A DNA stretch of 64,000 nt from NCBI GenBank assembly GCA_946495655.1, contig CAMMDS010000002.1:28984-92983 (forward strand), written 5' to 3'. The DNA comes from an uncultured Clostridium sp. GTDB taxonomy: Bacteria; Bacillota; Clostridia; TANB77; CAG-508. Made by a program: the position numbers and the translations under genes. Numbering within the stretch: the first letter of the stretch is position 1; each line of letters opens with the position of its first letter. Under the pieces are notes generated by a model, which was not told the origin of the DNA, searched no databases, and worked only from the letters and a program-made list of their open reading frames with translations. Positions 6 to 9,207 of this stretch are shown here, in pieces.

Positions 6-779
6 ATGCATGATAAATATTCATATGAAGCATTAGAAATGGCTTTACATGATAGAGATGAAGATATTTTAAGAACTATGGCATGCGGTATAGCAGGTTT
101 ATCAGTAGCTGCAGATTCATTATCTGCAATAAAATATGCTAAGGTAAAAGTTATAAGAGATGAAACAGGTCTTGCTGTTGATTACAAAGTTGAAGGAGAT
201 TTCCCAAAATACGGAAATGATGATGATAGAGTTGACCAAATAGCTGTTGACATTGTAAAATCTTTCTTAAGAAAATTACAAAAACATCACACATATAGAG
301 GTTCAAAACATACACTATCTATTTTAACAATTACTTCAAATGTTGTTTATGGTAAAAATACTGGTAACACACCTGATGGACGTCGTAGTGGAGAACCTTT
401 TGGACCTGGTGCAAATCCACTTCATGGAAGAGATTCAAACGGAGCATTAGCTGTAATGAATACAATATCAAAACTTCCATATGAATATTCTGAAGACGGT
501 ATTTCATTTACATTCTCAATCACACCTGCTGCTCTAGGAAAAGATGAAGAAACAAAAATTAATAACTTAGTAAGTATGCTTGATGGATACTTCAAACAAA
601 CTGGCCATCATATAAATGTAAATGTATTTAATAGAGAATTATTAGAAGATGCTATGGAGCATCCTGAAAATTATCCACAACTTACAATTCGTGTATCTGG
701 ATATGCAGTTAACTTTATTAAATTAACTAGAGAGCAACAATTAGATGTAATTAATAGAACTATACATGAAAGAATATAA
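6..779 (+). CDS. pflB: Formate C-acetyltransferase (pyruvate formate-lyase), C-terminal part; the gene starts upstream of the window
   Basis: Glycyl-radical motif RVSGYAVNF near the C-terminus, typical PFL C-terminal sequence. The ORF is open at the window start. Confidence 0.9.
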
Positions 780-782
780 GCT

Positions 783-813
783 TTGAACAAAAGGGAGTGT
801 CCCTTTTGTTCAA
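783..813. terminator. Perfect palindrome TTGAACAAAAGGGAGTGTCCCTTTTGTTCAA followed by a T-run. Likely an attenuator between pflB and pflA, and a member of a dispersed hairpin family.
   Basis: Roughly 13-bp stem and T-tract directly after the pflB stop. The same sequence recurs at 13047-13077. Confidence 0.5.
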
Positions 814-828
814 GTTTTTTAATTAATA

Positions 829-1581
829 ATGGAGGGTATAATGACAGAAGAAACAAACAACAATAATAAAATAGTTGGAAGAATTCATTCTTTTGAATCA
901 TTTGGAGCAGTAGATGGACCTGGAATTAGATTTGTAGTTTTTTTTCAAGGCTGTGGCTTAAGATGCAAATACTGCCATAATCGAGACACTTGGGCAATAA
1001 ATTCAGGAATGGAATATACATCTGATGAGCTAATTGCAAAAATTTCGAGATATAAAAATTACTTTACTGTATCTGGTGGAGGAGTTACTCTTTCTGGTGG
1101 AGAACCTTTATTACAACAAGATTTTTTACTTGAACTATTGCCTAAATTAAAAAAGTCAGGTATTCATATAGCTATTGATACATCTGGAAATTTTCCTCTC
1201 ACAGACAAAATGCAAAAAATTATTGATTTAGCTGATTTATTTTTATTAGATATAAAATGTATTAATGATGACATTTGTAAAGAATTAGTAGGAGTATCTA
1301 ATAAATTAGAATTGGAATTTGCGAAGTATTTAAGTGATATCAAAAAAGATGTATGGATTAGACAAGTATTAGTACCAGGTATTACAGATCATGAAGATGA
1401 TTTATTAAAATTAAAAGATTTTCTTTCTACATTAACGAATATAAAAAAAGTAGAAATACTTGCTTATCATGATTTAGGTAGATTTAAATGGGAGAATCTA
1501 GGATGCAACTATGAACTAGAGGACGTTCCTAATGCAACTACTGAGGATGTTGCAAGAGCAAAAAAAATTTTGGGTATATAA
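829..1581 (+). CDS. pflA: Pyruvate formate-lyase activating enzyme (radical SAM)
   Basis: CxxxCxxC-type radical SAM cluster motif (GCGLRCKYCHN). Lies immediately downstream of pflB. Confidence 0.9.
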   Translation: MEGIMTEETNNNNKIVGRIHSFESFGAVDGPGIRFVVFFQGCGLRCKYCHNRDTWAINSGMEYTSDELIAKISRYKNYFTVSGGGVTLSGGEPLLQQDFLLELLPKLKKSGIHIAIDTSGNFPLTDKMQKIIDLADLFLLDIKCINDDICKELVGVSNKLELEFAKYLSDIKKDVWIRQVLVPGITDHEDDLLKLKDFLSTLTNIKKVEILAYHDLGRFKWENLGCNYELEDVPNATTEDVARAKKILGI

Positions 1582-3058: not shown

Positions 3059-4969
<1,911 letters not shown>

Positions 4970-5769: not shown

Positions 5770-6788
5770 TCTCCATTTAATTTTTTACTAATATATTTCA
5801 TTACAGAAATAACTTTTGAATAATCCATTCTTGTTGGACCAATAATTCCTATAGTTCCTAAATCTTTATTTTTATATTTATGTTTAAATGTTACTATACT
5901 AAAATCCTTTAGTTTTTCATTTCCATTTTCACTACCTATATAAACATTTATGTCTTTCGCAAAACCTGTATTTAAAAGATCTGCTACAATTTCTTTTTGG
6001 TCTAAAACATTTATAAAATTCTTGGCTACTTCCAAACTCTTAAATTCTGGTAAATCAAACGCTTTATTAGCACCTTCCATATATATTTCTTCTTCTTCGT
6101 TTATTACTTTATTTAACTGTTCCATTATAGGTTTTATTACTTCTAAGCTATAATTCATATGAGAAAAAATATATTCCTCTAAAGGTTTATCTATTGAATC
6201 TAAAGGCTTACCTTTTAATTTATTATTAAATATAAAGTTTAAGGTTTCAACTTGTTCTTCTGTGATATCTTGATTGAATTTTATAATAGTTTCCTTAATA
6301 ATGCCACTATCAGTAAGAATAACGGCCATTAGCATTCTAGTTCCTAAGAGCACAAATTTAATCTCTTGTATGTTTTGTATATGTGTCCTTGGCCCTATTG
6401 CAACAGTAGTATAATGAGTTACCTCTGAAATTGTGCTTGTAGTTATTTTTGTTAAATCTTCTATTTCATTTACTTTTGCATTAAGTTTTGATTGTATATA
6501 CTTAATTTCTGCTAGACTTATGTTTTTATCATTTAATAACTCATCTACATATAATCTATATCCTCTTGCGGATGGAACTCTTCCGCTAGATGTATGTGGT
6601 TTTTCAATATATCCTACTTTTTCTAAATCTGCCATTTCGTTTCTTATAGTTGCACTACTTAAATCCAATCCATATCTATTTACTATACTTCCTGAGCTTA
6701 CTGGCTCTGCTGTGTTTATATATTCTTCAATTATTGCTTGTAATATTCTCTTTTTCCTTTTATCCACTTCTACACCTTCTTTTAGCAA
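5766..6788 (-). CDS. hrcA: Heat-inducible transcription repressor HrcA
   Basis: HrcA family length and sequence. First gene of the class I heat-shock operon. Confidence 0.9.
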   Translation of the reverse strand: MLKEGVEVDKRKKRILQAIIEEYINTAEPVSSGSIVNRYGLDLSSATIRNEMADLEKVGYIEKPHTSSGRVPSARGYRLYVDELLNDKNISLAEIKYIQSKLNAKVNEIEDLTKITTSTISEVTHYTTVAIGPRTHIQNIQEIKFVLLGTRMLMAVILTDSGIIKETIIKFNQDITEEQVETLNFIFNNKLKGKPLDSIDKPLEEYIFSHMNYSLEVIKPIMEQLNKVINEEEEIYMEGANKAFDLPEFKSLEVAKNFINVLDQKEIVADLLNTGFAKDINVYIGSENGNEKLKDFSIVTFKHKYKNKDLGTIGIIGPTRMDYSKVISVMKYISKKLNGE

Positions 6789-6808
6789 TTAATAAAGATG
6801 ACTGCTAA
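6782..6808 (-). promoter_or_regulatory. CIRCE-like operator 2 (TTAGCA-N15-TGCTAA), downstream of the putative hrcA -10
   Basis: Minus strand reads TTAGCAGTC-ATCTTTATT-AATTGCTAA. It matches the outer hexamers of CIRCE TTAGCACTC-N9-GAGTGCTAA, but the inner triplets are degenerate. Confidence 0.5.
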
Positions 6809-6832
6809 ACTTCATATATATTATACCCATTT

Positions 6833-6859
6833 TTAGCAATTGTCAATACTCATTGCTAA
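6833..6859 (-). promoter_or_regulatory. CIRCE-like operator 1 overlapping the putative hrcA -35 (TTGACA)
   Basis: Minus strand reads TTAGCAATG-AGTATTGAC-AATTGCTAA, then 15 nt further the -10 TATAAT. Confidence 0.55.
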
Positions 6860-6922
6860 TTTTAATTGTGAATTTTATGTGAAAAGCTGTAAAACTTTTT
6901 TTACTTTTTTATTAAAAACTAT

Positions 6923-6951
6923 TGACATATTAATCAAAATGATTTATACTT
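6923..6951 (+). promoter_or_regulatory. Sigma-A type promoter for the tRNA genes (TTGACA-17-TATACT)
   Basis: Consensus -35, 17-nt spacer and near-consensus -10, about 15 nt upstream of tRNA-Met. Confidence 0.5.
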
Positions 6952-6968
6952 TAAATTGCGTTTGAGAT

Positions 6969-7045
6969 GCGCCCTTAGCTCAGTTGGTTAGAGCAACCGG
7001 CTCATAACCGGTAGGTCCAAGGTTCGAATCCTTGAGGGCGCACCA
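6969..7045 (+). tRNA. tRNA with CAU anticodon (Met; possibly tRNA-Ile2/lysidine)
   Basis: Cloverleaf GCGCCCT...AGGGCGCA acceptor, GGCTCATAACC anticodon arm, GGTTCGAATCC T-arm, CCA encoded. Confidence 0.9.
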
Positions 7046-7098
7046 TTTTTATTAAAAAGATTAGTATTATGCTATTCTTATTAATAAAATTATATTTT

Positions 7099-7410
7099 GG
7101 GTAGGTGGCCGAGTGGCTAAAGGCGGCAGACTGTGGTCTTTGGTTAATCAAAACCTAAACTTGCAGCTCATATAAGTAATTATATGATGAACACCGGGCT
7201 AATTCGGGGAACTCTTAACAGGTTAAGCTGATGACAATCCCGAGCTAGAAAAGAATTTTTCGAGTGTAGAGACTTTATACCTGGTATCTTTAAAAAGATA
7301 AAGAGAAAGTCCAGACTACAAACATATTATTCATATGGTAGTGAAAACTATAGTAGTAAGAAATCTGTTCTCATTTGAGTACGATGGTTCGAATCCATCC
7401 CTGCCCACCA
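7099..7410 (+). tRNA. tRNA-Tyr (GUA), a type II tRNA interrupted by a group I intron in the anticodon loop. The two exons join into an 86-nt tRNA.
   Basis: 5' exon GGGTAGGTGGCCGAGTGGCTAAAGGCGGCAGACTGT. 3' exon AAATCTGTTCTCATTTGAGTACGATGGTTCGAATCCATCCCTGCCCACCA. Joined anticodon loop CTGTAAA. Strong similarity to bacterial tRNA-Tyr (GCAGACTGTAAATCTGC). Confidence 0.85.
7135..7370 (+). ncRNA. Group I intron (236 nt, no ORF) inserted after U35 of tRNA-Tyr
   Basis: 5' exon ends in U and the intron ends in G. Recognisable P, Q, R and S core elements: AATTCGGGGAA, AATCCCGAGC, GTGTAGAGACT (identical to the Azoarcus tRNA-Ile intron R element) and AAGTCCAGACTA. Confidence 0.8.
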
Positions 7411-7459
7411 ATAAAACAAGTTAAAACTTGTTTTATTTTTAGTATTTCTTTGCAAACAT

Positions 7460-7870
7460 TTGTTTATGGAGGCGTGTCTGTTGAATTTTTTTACTAATAA
7501 AGAAAAAGGTAACACCGGACTAGGTATTGCAATTGCATACTTTTCCTCTCATGGTTATATAGTTTCTATTCCGTTAAACGATACTCAAGATTACGATTTA
7601 GTTATTGATAAAAATCACACAATAAAAAAAGTGCAAGTCAAATCAACATCTTGTAAAACGCAATATGATATATATCAAGTTTCTCTAAAAAGTTGTGGTG
7701 GCACTAAAGGAAAAACATATAAAACATTAATAGATACTAATGTAGACATATTATTTATTGTTACGGATAAGTTGGATACTTATTTAATTCCTATAGAGTT
7801 TATAAAAAATAAATCAAGTTTAAATTTATGCAAAAAATACATTAATTTTAAAGTATCAATAAATGATTAA
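7460..7870 (+). CDS. Hypothetical small protein; possible PD-(D/E)xK / Hjc-like nuclease fold (candidate free-standing homing-endonuclease-like gene next to the intron-containing tRNA)
   Basis: 136-aa ORF 50 nt downstream of tRNA-Tyr. Pattern G..G..IA.A....GY.V..P..D...YDLVID......KVQVKS resembles restriction-endonuclease-like cores. No similarity verified. Confidence 0.45.
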   Translation: MFMEACLLNFFTNKEKGNTGLGIAIAYFSSHGYIVSIPLNDTQDYDLVIDKNHTIKKVQVKSTSCKTQYDIYQVSLKSCGGTKGKTYKTLIDTNVDILFIVTDKLDTYLIPIEFIKNKSSLNLCKKYINFKVSIND

Positions 7871-7966
7871 AAGATTTATTACTGAATAATATTTAAATAA
7901 TATGGCAATTATCTGATTTATGATATAATGAATTTAAACAGTACAAATAAATTCTTAGGAGGTCTT

Positions 7967-8824
7967 ATGGAAGAAATTATAAAAATATTAATTTTATCAC
8001 TGCTTTTTCTTTTAATTGTGATAATTATATATTTATATTTTGAAAATAACTATATAAAGATTACCAACATAGATATTGTAGATTCAAAAATTCCAAGTGA
8101 ATTTAAAGATTTTACTATTGTACATATTTCAGATTTGCATAATAAACAATTTGGTAAAAATCAAAAAAATATAATAAGCAAAATAAATAAAATTTCACCA
8201 GATATAATCGTAATCACCGGAGATTTAATAAGTTCTTATTCTACCAACCTAGATATAGCAATAGACTTTATAAATAATGCAATTAAAGTTGCTCCTATTT
8301 ATTATGTTAATGGTAATCACGAATCTAGATTACCTGAGGATTACAATTCATTAAAATCTCAAATGAAATCTGCTGGTGTTAATATATTGGAAAATAGCTA
8401 TTCATCAATCTCTAAAGAAAATAGTAAAATCAATATAATAGGAATTAACGATCCTAGTTTTGATGCTTTACAATTATATGGATATACTGACCAACAAATA
8501 ATTTCAAAAGATTTAGAAAAGTTAACTAATAATTCAGATGAATACACAATTCTTCTTTCACATAGACCTGAGCTTTTTGATACTTATTGTTCTTACAATA
8601 TAAATTTAGTATTTGCTGGACATGCTCATGGTGGTCAAATTAGACTACCCTTTATAGGTGGAGTAATTGCTCCAAATCAAGGATTTTTTCCTCAATATAC
8701 TTCAGGATTATATCAAAAAGGAAATACTAATATGATTGTTAGTAGAGGTCTTGGGAATAGTGCATTTCCATTTAGAATCAATAATAGACCTGAAATAGTA
8801 GTTGTAAAACTTTCTAATAATTAA
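7967..8824 (+). CDS. Membrane-anchored metallophosphoesterase (calcineurin-like)
   Basis: Motifs HISDLH, ITGDL, GNHE, GHAHGG. N-terminal TM helix. Start chosen after AGGAGG (longer ORF from 7928). Confidence 0.8.
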   Translation: MEEIIKILILSLLFLLIVIIIYLYFENNYIKITNIDIVDSKIPSEFKDFTIVHISDLHNKQFGKNQKNIISKINKISPDIIVITGDLISSYSTNLDIAIDFINNAIKVAPIYYVNGNHESRLPEDYNSLKSQMKSAGVNILENSYSSISKENSKINIIGINDPSFDALQLYGYTDQQIISKDLEKLTNNSDEYTILLSHRPELFDTYCSYNINLVFAGHAHGGQIRLPFIGGVIAPNQGFFPQYTSGLYQKGNTNMIVSRGLGNSAFPFRINNRPEIVVVKLSNN

Positions 8825-8964
8825 TATAATGTTATTTACAAAAACAATTTTTGAATTGATGTTTTTTCAATTTTTAAATTGTTTTTTATTTTTTTATAAT
8901 TTTGAATATTTTATCTTTTTTCGCTTATACTATTACTAATAGTATAATGAAAGGACTGAATATT

Positions 8965-9159
8965 ATGAAAATTATTGATAAAATAGCTCTTGCTTTAGTA
9001 ATAATTGGTGCAATTAATTGGGGATTAGTAGGAATATTTAATTTCAATTTAGTAGATGCTATATTTGGAGCTATGTCTATTATTAGTAGAATAATATATA
9101 TATTAGTTGGTATTTCAGGTTTATGGTCAATTAGATTACTATTTGTAGATTACGACTAA
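8965..9159 (+). CDS. DUF378-family small membrane protein
   Basis: ALVIIGAINWGLVG...LVGISGL pattern typical of DUF378. Start at MKIIDK with AAGGA RBS (ORF track starts at 8902). Confidence 0.65.
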   Translation: MKIIDKIALALVIIGAINWGLVGIFNFNLVDAIFGAMSIISRIIYILVGISGLWSIRLLFVDYD

Positions 9160-9164
9160 ATTCC

Positions 9165-9207
9165 ACAAAAAAGACAGTTTAGCTTTAAACTGTCTTTACT
9201 TATTTTT
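9165..9207. terminator. Bidirectional terminator hairpin (AAAGACAGTTTAGCTTTAAACTGTCTTT)
   Basis: Perfect inverted repeat with flanking A/T runs between convergent genes. Confidence 0.5.

Follow-up and report, generated by a model that had tools for sequence, protein, structure and literature searches.

Bacterial group I introns reside mainly in tRNA and rRNA genes (2014 review, PMC3984707). The four classical types of tRNA intron have been extended to 21, with a seed set that includes a tRNA-Tyr representative, Mba143.Tyr.4Ug (Williams 2020, bioRxiv 10.1101/2020.01.27.920355). A tRNA-Tyr(GUA) gene whose anticodon is interrupted at 35/36 by a group I intron has also been reported from Patescibacteria (GCA_016699995.1; mSystems 2026, PMC13011429). 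That survey covered complete genomes only and limited its search for endonuclease genes to the interior of introns above 500 bp. It found that 35/36 insertions are rare outside Patescibacteria, that most tRNA introns carry no endonuclease gene, and that PF11645 genes occur inside tRNA-fMet and tRNA-Arg(UCU) introns. Here, we analyzed a 64-kb stretch of DNA from an uncultured Clostridium sp. (GCA_946495655.1, contig CAMMDS010000002.1, positions 28,984 to 92,983), hereafter the window. With a probability of about 85%, positions 7099-7410 (plus strand) represent a tRNA-Tyr(GUA) gene in which a 226-nucleotide (nt) group I intron resembling subgroup IC3 separates U35 from A36. A free-standing PD-(D/E)XK endonuclease gene follows 70 nt past the tRNA.

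The window intron shares with Tyr.4Ug of Mba143 the host tRNA and the insertion site (CUGU/...AAA), the U at position -1, the terminal G, the guide UUGCAG, a P2 hairpin and the overall layout of P3 to P9. However, the core of Tyr.4Ug reads AUAACGGUG...AUACCGUGG and its end ...guuuaug, while the window intron reads AAUUCGGGG...AAUCCCGAG and ends in ...GUAGUAAG. About 60% of the window positions are identical to Tyr.4Ug, which is no more than for the Met, Arg or Ser introns. The window intron represents a different lineage from the Tyr.4Ug representative. The Patescibacteria intron has the same isotype and the same 35/36 position and was likewise overlooked by standard tRNA finders (PMC13011429). 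It belongs to another phylum, and the Patescibacteria tRNA introns are nearly all classed in that study as subgroup IA, while the window intron resembles the classical IC3 seeds in motifs and layout.

The 5' exon of the split gene (7099-7134, +, 36 nt) contains the acceptor 5' strand, the D arm, the anticodon-stem 5' strand and C32 U33 G34 U35. The 3' exon (7361-7410, +, 50 nt) begins with A36 and contains the anticodon-stem 3' strand, the long variable arm, the T arm, the acceptor 3' strand and an encoded CCA. When introns were allowed, ARAGORN reported tRNA-Tyr i(37,226) at 7099-7410. Joining the two exons gave an 86-nt class II tRNA-Tyr(GTA) with the loop CUGUAAA and the CCA encoded. The spliced molecule has the features of a bacterial class II tRNA-Tyr, namely a cloverleaf, a long variable arm, the anticodon GUA and a 3-bp D stem. 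The insert occupies 7135-7360 between anticodon positions 35 and 36 (U35|A36), begins with GGUC and ends with UAAG, and the predicted ligated exon junction is GGCAGACUGU|AAAUCUGUU. Intronless relatives read GACTGT|AAATCTG at the same junction, and the alignment of a syntenic intronless locus (L304) to the window ends exactly at 7134; the exon/intron junction is thus fixed empirically.

The first-pass annotation of this DNA had already placed the insertion after U35 with a terminal G as its last base, which agrees with G7360. It had also described an 86-nt type II tRNA-Tyr with the loop CUGUAAA, which was obtained here in ARAGORN with the corrected 3' exon. Its 3' exon start at 7371 was wrong by 10 nt, and its intron length of 236 nt has to be corrected to 226 nt. 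Joining 7099-7134 to 7371-7410 yields only 76 nt, which ARAGORN called as a spurious tRNA-Asn.

The insert is a bona fide group I ribozyme fold. An IC3-type model was drawn by hand on the window sequence and then projected onto MAFFT alignments that had not been fitted to any structure. Two alignments were used, one with 110 distinct homologs and one with 40 diverse sequences for the formal pair count. In the latter, 98.4% of the cells were paired, compared to 36-45% with slid partners. Changes on both sides were found in 42 of the 85 intron and tRNA pairs, and none of 500 shuffles reached any of five measures. The P, Q, R and S core elements claimed in the first-pass annotation were recovered, and the whole of P1 to P9 could be drawn. 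The same structure with compensatory changes in at least 119 genomes places the split gene and its fold far beyond chance. The IC3 likeness refers to motifs and layout shared with the classical IC3 seeds, and the assignment to this subgroup is a putative one.

The intron elements all lie on the plus strand. In P1 (7131-7166), the exon CUGU (7131-7134) pairs with the guide GCAG (7163-7166), with U35·G at the splice site. The four pairs are invariant in the 110 distinct sequences, and a 2-bp extension between G7135/G7136 and U7162/U7161 is possible. The P1 loop contains a hairpin (GGUcUUUG-guuaau-CAAAACC, 7135-7155) with weaker pairing (73-92%) and a near-invariant CUUUG; the stem sequence varies by lineage while a stem is always possible. 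At this site an endonuclease open reading frame (ORF) is found in one homologous locus (L235), and the hairpin is missing in another (L167) and, unlike in the window intron, in the Tyr.4Ug seed. The hairpin may be the scar left by a lost ORF, or it may extend P1 functionally. P2 (7168-7187) has 8 bp and a GUAA tetraloop; 7 of its 8 pairs displayed compensatory double changes and it was 100% paired.

The 5' strand of P3 (7193-7198) pairs with its 3' strand (7280-7285) and forms a pseudoknot with P7, with double changes in four of the six pairs. The classical P and Q elements are located in 7203-7244, which comprises P4 (7203-7209/7238-7244), P5 (7213-7214/7233-7234) and P5a (7219-7221/7228-7230). 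In the 40 sequences, P4 is nearly invariant and 98.9% paired, and P5 alternates between U-A and C-G in 11 sequences. P5 and all three pairs of P5a showed double changes in the 110 sequences, and the internal loop of P5 is receptor-like and conserved. P6 (7245-7246/7263-7264) and P6a (7248-7252/7257-7261) occupy 7245-7264, and all five pairs of P6a had double changes in the 110 sequences. P8 forms a hairpin at 7286-7299 (97.9% paired, two pairs with double changes). P9 (7315-7357) is a three-way junction with a closing helix (7315-7319/7353-7357, 100% paired), a hairpin at 7324-7336 and a second hairpin at 7338-7351 with a GAAA tetraloop; the inner hairpins covaried in 4/4 and 2/5 pairs. P8 and these two hairpins also displayed double changes in the 110-sequence set. 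The terminal guanosine (omega-G, 7360) precedes the 3' splice site and was present in all homologs, being part of the search pattern described below.

P7, the predicted guanosine-binding helix with a bulged nucleotide, is formed by G(A)GACU (7269-7274) within GUGUAGAGACU, the R element, and AGUCC (7308-7312), the S element; the helix is invariant and 100% paired. The arrangement GUGUAGAGACU...AAAGUCC, with the flanking J6/7 and J8/7 motifs, matches the seeds of Williams at the sequence level. The first-pass annotation had stressed the identity of GUGUAGAGACU to the Azoarcus tRNA-Ile intron. The motif is indeed present in the Azoarcus-type Ile2 seed, but it is also found in nine of the 15 other types. 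Its presence in 10 of the 16 tRNA-intron types compared marks it as a generic core motif. A text search of the literature found no mention of it.

Several points weigh against the assignment of the insert as a working group I intron. P1, P7, P4, P6 and the closing helix of P9 never vary and therefore provide no covariation evidence. P7' and P9, together with the terminal G, were partly fixed by the pattern used to find the loci, so that the invariance of P7' is partly a selection effect. A sensitive scan of the 411-nt region 7050-7460 matched RF00028 (Intron_gpI) over 7131-7333 with E = 6.2e-10, but the score of 43.4 bits is under the gathering score of 50. Thus, the covariance-model check suggested in the first-pass annotation gave a significant local match below the formal threshold. 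Finally, we infer self-splicing from structure and conservation.

The exons are kept as a working tRNA. Covariation was seen in the acceptor, D and anticodon helices involving the 5' exon and in the variable-arm and T-arm helices of the 3' exon. These five helices were 89-100% paired in the 40-sequence alignment, all with compensatory changes, which were also seen in the 110-sequence set. The gene is therefore under selection as a tRNA. This bears on the possibility, raised in the first-pass annotation, of a decayed tRNA-Tyr pseudogene here, its insertion dead and translation served by an intact tRNA-Tyr at another locus. The data on this genome are confined to the 64-kb window, and the Rfam intron score is under the gathering threshold, both of which would allow such a pseudogene. 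Against it, compensatory changes accompany the conservation of both exon halves and the intron in 110 distinct sequences, and the spliced product is identical in sequence to the intronless tRNA-Tyr of relatives. Moreover, ARAGORN found no second tRNA-Tyr in the 64-kb window or in any of the 119 homologous 8-kb loci. A pseudogene is therefore effectively excluded, and we consider it highly improbable. Without a second copy, the carriers would depend on RNA self-splicing to read every tyrosine codon.

The homologous loci were retrieved from species-representative genomes with a pattern joining the intron 3' portion to the tRNA-Tyr-specific start of the 3' exon (...TAAG|AAATCT). In at least 119 species-level genomes, this site of tRNA-Tyr was found to hold such an intron. 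Nearly all carriers were uncultured gut or rumen metagenome-assembled genomes (MAGs) named 'Clostridia', 'Clostridium sp. CAG:...' or 'Bacillota'. ARAGORN placed an intron in tRNA-Tyr(GTA) at this position in 115 of the 119 loci; in the other four, the same gene was cut by the edge of the contig or locus. Intron lengths ranged from 214 to 250 nt, with two ORF-bearing introns of 586 nt (L235) and 621 nt (L167). The latter, from a 'Bacilli bacterium' MAG (224-928, minus strand), has exons of a different lineage (acceptor GGAGGGG). In 85 homologous loci, a tRNA-Met directly precedes the split tRNA-Tyr. Among the loci listed, the closest relative of the window was L196, with 82-84% nucleotide identity in the flanking genes and about 96% in the intron. 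If these species hold no second tRNA-Tyr, such dependence on self-splicing would be widespread in the gut bacteria of humans and animals, beyond the well-known cyanobacterial, plastid and Patescibacteria examples.

Standard tools overlooked the gene. Without the intron option, ARAGORN detected tRNA-Met (6969-7045) as the one tRNA in the 64-kb window, and Rfam at the gathering threshold passed over intron and tRNA-Tyr alike throughout the window. With these settings, intron and tRNA-Tyr also went unreported in all 18 relatives tested, and none of these 18 loci passed the gathering threshold of RF00028. None of the Rfam group I seeds is bacterial (Williams 2020, bioRxiv 10.1101/2020.01.27.920355), and according to published surveys tRNAscan-SE was not built to find such introns. 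In standard annotation, at least 119 species of gut Clostridia and Bacillota would thus seem to be devoid of tRNA-Tyr, and measures of tRNA complement and MAG quality are distorted accordingly. It was also observed that in five of six metagenome contigs with the identical 129-amino-acid nuclease protein (L240-L245), one contig end falls within the tRNA or the intron, 70-210 nt upstream of the ORF. Assembly of metagenomes seems to be interrupted by the conserved element at the split locus, and this may add to under-reporting.

Small IC3 tRNA introns are self-splicing as a rule. For the window locus, tRNA-Met and the split tRNA-Tyr would be co-transcribed from the promoter-like site at 6922-6950, and the intron would fold into the P1-P9 core that is backed by covariation. 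The guide GCAG would bind the exon CUGU and create the U·G wobble at the 5' splice site, one that can be seen in the sequence and is invariant. If splicing follows the established pathway of group I introns, P7 would bind an exogenous guanosine that attacks after U35. G7360 would then occupy the guanosine site, the freed 3'-OH of U35 would attack the 3' splice site, and exon ligation would yield the 86-nt tRNA-Tyr with its encoded CCA.

The fold may also be present in an intron that splices inefficiently by itself and is removed in vivo with a protein cofactor or chaperone. P1 is short, with four invariant pairs, and in this respect is similar to the Anabaena pre-tRNA-Leu intron, which reportedly needs the anticodon stem of its exons (Zaug et al., 1993). 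In addition, the A/U-rich intron (34.5% G+C) may fold more weakly. However, the core helices, the GUAA and GAAA tetraloops and the receptor-like internal loop of P5 are all conserved, which is in accordance with the general behavior of small IC3 tRNA introns. Dependence on a helper is therefore considered improbable, and self-splicing remains the preferred interpretation.

Intronless alleles were searched in metagenomes with the uninterrupted junction flanked by the exon sequence of the clade, and at least 120 loci were obtained. Among the 120 intronless loci listed, 71 had a tRNA-Tyr within three mismatches of the spliced products of intron-bearing genes. Thirty were exact matches to such products, eight of them to the spliced tRNA of the window, and tRNA-Met was directly upstream in 58. 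The first-pass annotation had proposed to look for such alleles in relatives, and they do exist (e.g., L304, L315 and L326), with precise absence of the intron. L315 (intronless) and L122 (with intron) share 93.5% identity over 7.1 kb and differ by the intron.

Phylogenetic analysis of the neighboring AMP-binding gene showed that intron-plus and intron-minus loci were interleaved, with six state changes among 30 loci (shuffled mean 8.5). Intron distances were in accordance with those of the host marker (Mantel r = 0.59, p = 5e-4). The best reading is that the intron is old and was mostly inherited vertically with repeated loss. Local re-gain is possible and is inseparable from loss in these data. 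Rampant horizontal transfer was rejected, since intron and ORF distances both track the host marker. The junction pattern gave no match in viral contigs, so no vector is evident.

Such a history would also fit an essentially immobile passenger, comparable to the tRNA-Leu intron of plastids and cyanobacteria, whose patchiness results from precise loss without homing. The Mantel correlation, the tRNA-Met/tRNA-Tyr synteny kept in 85 loci, the lack of copies in viral contigs and the fact that half of the introns have no ORF nearby are all in agreement with this. However, the purifying selection on the nuclease gene described below would be hard to explain if the nuclease were inactive. The state changes on the neighbor-gene tree and the 93.5%-identical pairs that differ in the intron also speak for some mobility, though neither separates gain from loss. 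Complete immobility therefore appears doubtful.

The gene past the tRNA (7481-7870, +) encodes a homolog of I-Ssp6803I with 129 amino acids and has a TTG start after GGAGG at 7468-7472. The ORF matched PF11645 (PD-(D/E)XK_5) with 62.2 bits (cut-off 26.1, E = 6.9e-17). A profile built from 46 diverse members had a sole match in PDB, 2OST (E = 4.8e-13, residues 3-119), which is the homing endonuclease I-Ssp6803I; the similarity of the single sequence to 2OST was low (E = 0.012). D39...Q52-x-K54 aligned to YDL...VQVK of 2OST, with D39 invariant; Q52 and K54 are likewise invariant or show a conservation of at least 90%. The residues of the D...(Q/E)xK motif are reportedly catalytic (Zhao et al. 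2007).

All 1814 homologs contained PF11645, and 1290 related clusters were present in a 50%-identity library. An identical 129-amino-acid protein is on record, indicating that gene callers agree on the start. The ORF was intact in 46 loci, and the median ratio of nonsynonymous to synonymous substitutions (dN/dS) was 0.22 at dS of about 1. Decay was seen as well, in the form of ORF remnants and of a clean internal deletion of about 306 nt in L130 compared to the 94.4%-identical L150.

The ORF was located 57-110 nt past the tRNA on the same strand in the window and in 49 other intron-bearing loci, and 0.5-2 kb downstream of the tRNA in three. Only N-terminal remnants were left in five intron-bearing loci, and the ORF was absent from 45, including L196. 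The ORF is encoded within the intron only in L235 and L167, and not in the window. In L235, a 57%-identical homolog is inserted in the P1 loop of the tRNA-Tyr intron, while L167 carries a more distant PF11645 ORF of 143 amino acids in the P6 loop, representing a second, independent intron-internal arrangement. Intact ORFs were found in 53 of 103 intron-bearing loci versus one of about 60 clade-like intronless loci (Fisher p ~1e-12, with samples that are phylogenetically non-independent). That one intronless locus is L326, and remnants were present in L301, L348 and L364.

A further copy of the nuclease gene was observed in L334 (11300-11800), 10 kb from an intronless tRNA-Tyr. It has an in-frame stop and is preceded by the usual hairpin and a decayed-looking tRNA 3' end (...TTCGAAT...ACGCACCA), which gives the impression of a joint relocation of ORF and tRNA flank.

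We slightly favor the view that the product of 7481-7870 is a free-standing homing partner that cuts the anticodon region of the uninterrupted tRNA-Tyr. With I-Ssp6803I as a precedent and in view of the allele statistics, the nuclease would cut the pseudo-palindromic CAGA-CTGTAAA-TCTG of the uninterrupted gene. The intron would split this target and thereby protect its carrier. Repair from an intron-plus donor would co-convert the intron and the nuclease gene located about 120 bp away, a process that may be called collaborative homing. Such a process predicts an asymmetry in which introns without ORF are common (45 loci) and ORFs without intron are rare (one intact and three remnants). We give an even chance to the broader proposal, in which the 129-amino-acid nuclease of the I-Ssp6803I family drives collaborative homing of an ORF-less intron by cutting the uninterrupted tRNA-Tyr. 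In that proposal, the P1-loop, P6-loop and downstream arrangements would form a living series of association and separation.

A number of observations count against a role as homing partner. In L326 (100-1100, minus strand), an apparently intact ORF (514-146) with all of the family-invariant residues follows the tRNA-Met, an uninterrupted tRNA-Tyr (588-673) and the usual hairpin. The locus is colinear with L150 on both sides and exactly the 222-nt intron is missing, so it is not obviously an assembly chimera. The prediction that the nuclease gene never stands beside an uninterrupted tRNA-Tyr thus failed once. No promoter-like site was found between the tRNA and the ORF, and expression may therefore depend on read-through of the weak hairpin after the tRNA. 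The junction pattern was absent from viral contigs, and the AlphaFold model reached a predicted local distance difference test (pLDDT) of 53 from a shallow alignment and was set aside. ORF distances followed the host marker (r = 0.83, n = 8, Mantel), and the correlation between ORF and intron was r = 0.34. Since intron and ORF both track the host marker, their association may partly reflect shared descent, and the Fisher p overstates independence.

These observations would suit a nuclease that is not a homing partner, either an independent selfish or host nuclease using the 3' flank of tRNA-Tyr or a protein with another function, with the association arising from tight linkage (120 nt) and shared descent. 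L326, the weak correlation of ORF with intron and the L334 copy adjoining a decayed tRNA 3' end point in this direction. In a family of 1290 clusters at 50% identity, many members are also probably not associated with introns. However, homologs are located inside the tRNA-Tyr introns of L235 and L167, and the asymmetry between introns without ORF and ORFs without intron is strong. The only characterized relative cuts a tRNA anticodon region (PMC3384342; PMC3984707), and PF11645 recurs in tRNA introns (PMC13011429). An independent nuclease is thus regarded as rather unlikely, and the homing partner remains the preferred interpretation. If it is correct, surveys that look only inside introns, and conclude that they are mostly immobile, would miss external partners. 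Published estimates of tRNA-intron mobility based on intron-internal ORFs may then be too low.

Upstream of the split gene, a sigma-70-type promoter-like site (TTGACA-17-TATACT, 6922-6950, +) matched the consensus at 11 of 12 positions and would be the presumptive promoter. It is followed by tRNA-Met(CAT) in the same orientation as the split tRNA-Tyr (6969-7045, +; ARAGORN, Rfam tRNA 75.8 bits). The dnaK, grpE and hrcA genes are on the minus strand upstream of the tRNA pair. Directly after the tRNA-Tyr, an 11-bp A/U-rich hairpin with a T tract (7411-7440, +; RNAfold dG = -8.8 kcal/mol) is probably a weak terminator, and an equivalent is conserved in the ORF-bearing loci. A terminator scan with a G+C rule reported none, as this A/U-rich hairpin fails the G+C criterion. 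Between the hairpin and the ribosome-binding site of the ORF there is a conserved inverted repeat, CAAACA-nn-TGTTTG (7449-7465, consensus ACnAACAAAnGTTT), which may serve the nuclease gene as an operator or other regulatory element.

Comparison of L196 (1290-4900) with the window (6790-9200) revealed that the tRNA-Met/tRNA-Tyr block is inverted relative to hrcA, and that the nuclease, metallophosphoesterase and DUF378 genes are swapped for other genes. The first replacement ORF may, by its look, be a Phd/YefM-type antitoxin. The 3' flank of the tRNA-Tyr is thus a variable region. The window has 28.1% G+C and encodes a glmS ribozyme/riboswitch (RF00234, 23582-23739, +, 89.2 bits, gathering 37), both of which are consistent with a low-G+C Bacillota genome. 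In L213, a tetrahydrofolate (THF) riboswitch and an S-adenosylmethionine (SAM) riboswitch were detected at 3394-3490 (-) and 6591-6674 (+), unrelated to the intron.

With the classical IC3 introns of tRNA-Leu(UAA), Azoarcus-type Ile2(CAU), Arg(CCU) and fMet, the window intron shares a size of about 200-250 nt and a site in the anticodon loop. The shared core motifs are AAUUCGGGGAA, AAUCCCGAGC, GUGUAGAGACU and AGUCCAGAC, together with GNRA loops on P2 and P9 and the U·G splice site. It differs from them in the host tRNA and the loop position (34/35 in Leu, elsewhere in Ile, Arg and fMet). Identity of the window intron to the bacterial seeds was flat, ranging from 46 to 62%. Descent from a tRNA-Leu(UAA) intron by way of the near-identical anticodon arm was considered and found without specific support, since the Leu seeds (56-60%) did not exceed those of Met, Arg, Ser and Tyr. 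The closest sequences among those found were unannotated tRNA introns on viral contigs (74-78% identity), and these nearest relatives sit in several different tRNAs.

The phage introns known in 2014 were all in protein-coding genes (2014 review, PMC3984707). In IMG/VR, more than 120 viral contigs matched the IC3 core pattern, which is unspecific. According to ARAGORN, phage-borne tRNAs for Arg, Asn, Thr, Leu, Lys, Phe, Met, Ala, Gln and Gly and suppressor-like tRNAs have their anticodon loops interrupted by introns of about 200 nt, sometimes several per contig. Examples are L012 1251-1562, L014 6267-6542, L041 14212-14526, L042 6005-6287, L073 10994-11276, L090 2557-2852 and L116 776-4068.

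The closest described counterpart of the nuclease is I-Ssp6803I, a tetrameric PD-(D/E)xK enzyme with a 23-bp pseudo-palindromic target (PMC3384342). The window protein has in common with this enzyme, which is encoded in the Synechocystis tRNA-fMet intron (PDB 2OST), the PF11645 family, the D...QxK motif and the tie to a group I intron in a tRNA anticodon loop. In contrast to I-Ssp6803I, the window gene is free-standing, the host is a member of the Bacillota instead of the cyanobacteria, and the activity is a predicted one.

Collaborative or trans homing reportedly occurs with the psbA intron of cyanophage S-PM2 and F-CphI, and with mobE and I-TevIII in phage T4. As in these cases, the window combines an intron without a nuclease and an adjoining free-standing nuclease gene, and the proposed logic is the same, the intron interrupting the target. 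However, those systems involve phage protein-coding genes and other nuclease families, whereas the window has a chromosomal bacterial tRNA gene and a PD-(D/E)XK protein. Also unlike those systems, other hosts carry this nuclease lineage within the intron. One lineage that is internal in some hosts and an outside gene in others, in intact, deleted and remnant states, offers a natural test system for the association of homing endonuclease genes and introns.

The first-pass annotation was not aware of a described tRNA-Tyr intron in Clostridia. The literature searched contained no description of a tRNA-Tyr intron family spanning the Clostridia, nor of any intron-bearing tRNA with a free-standing PF11645 gene next to it. 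The implied novelty has to be narrowed, as the Tyr.4Ug class and the Patescibacteria 35/36 intron were already known. The intron class of the window has therefore been catalogued before, while its lineage in the gut Bacillota is new and very widespread.

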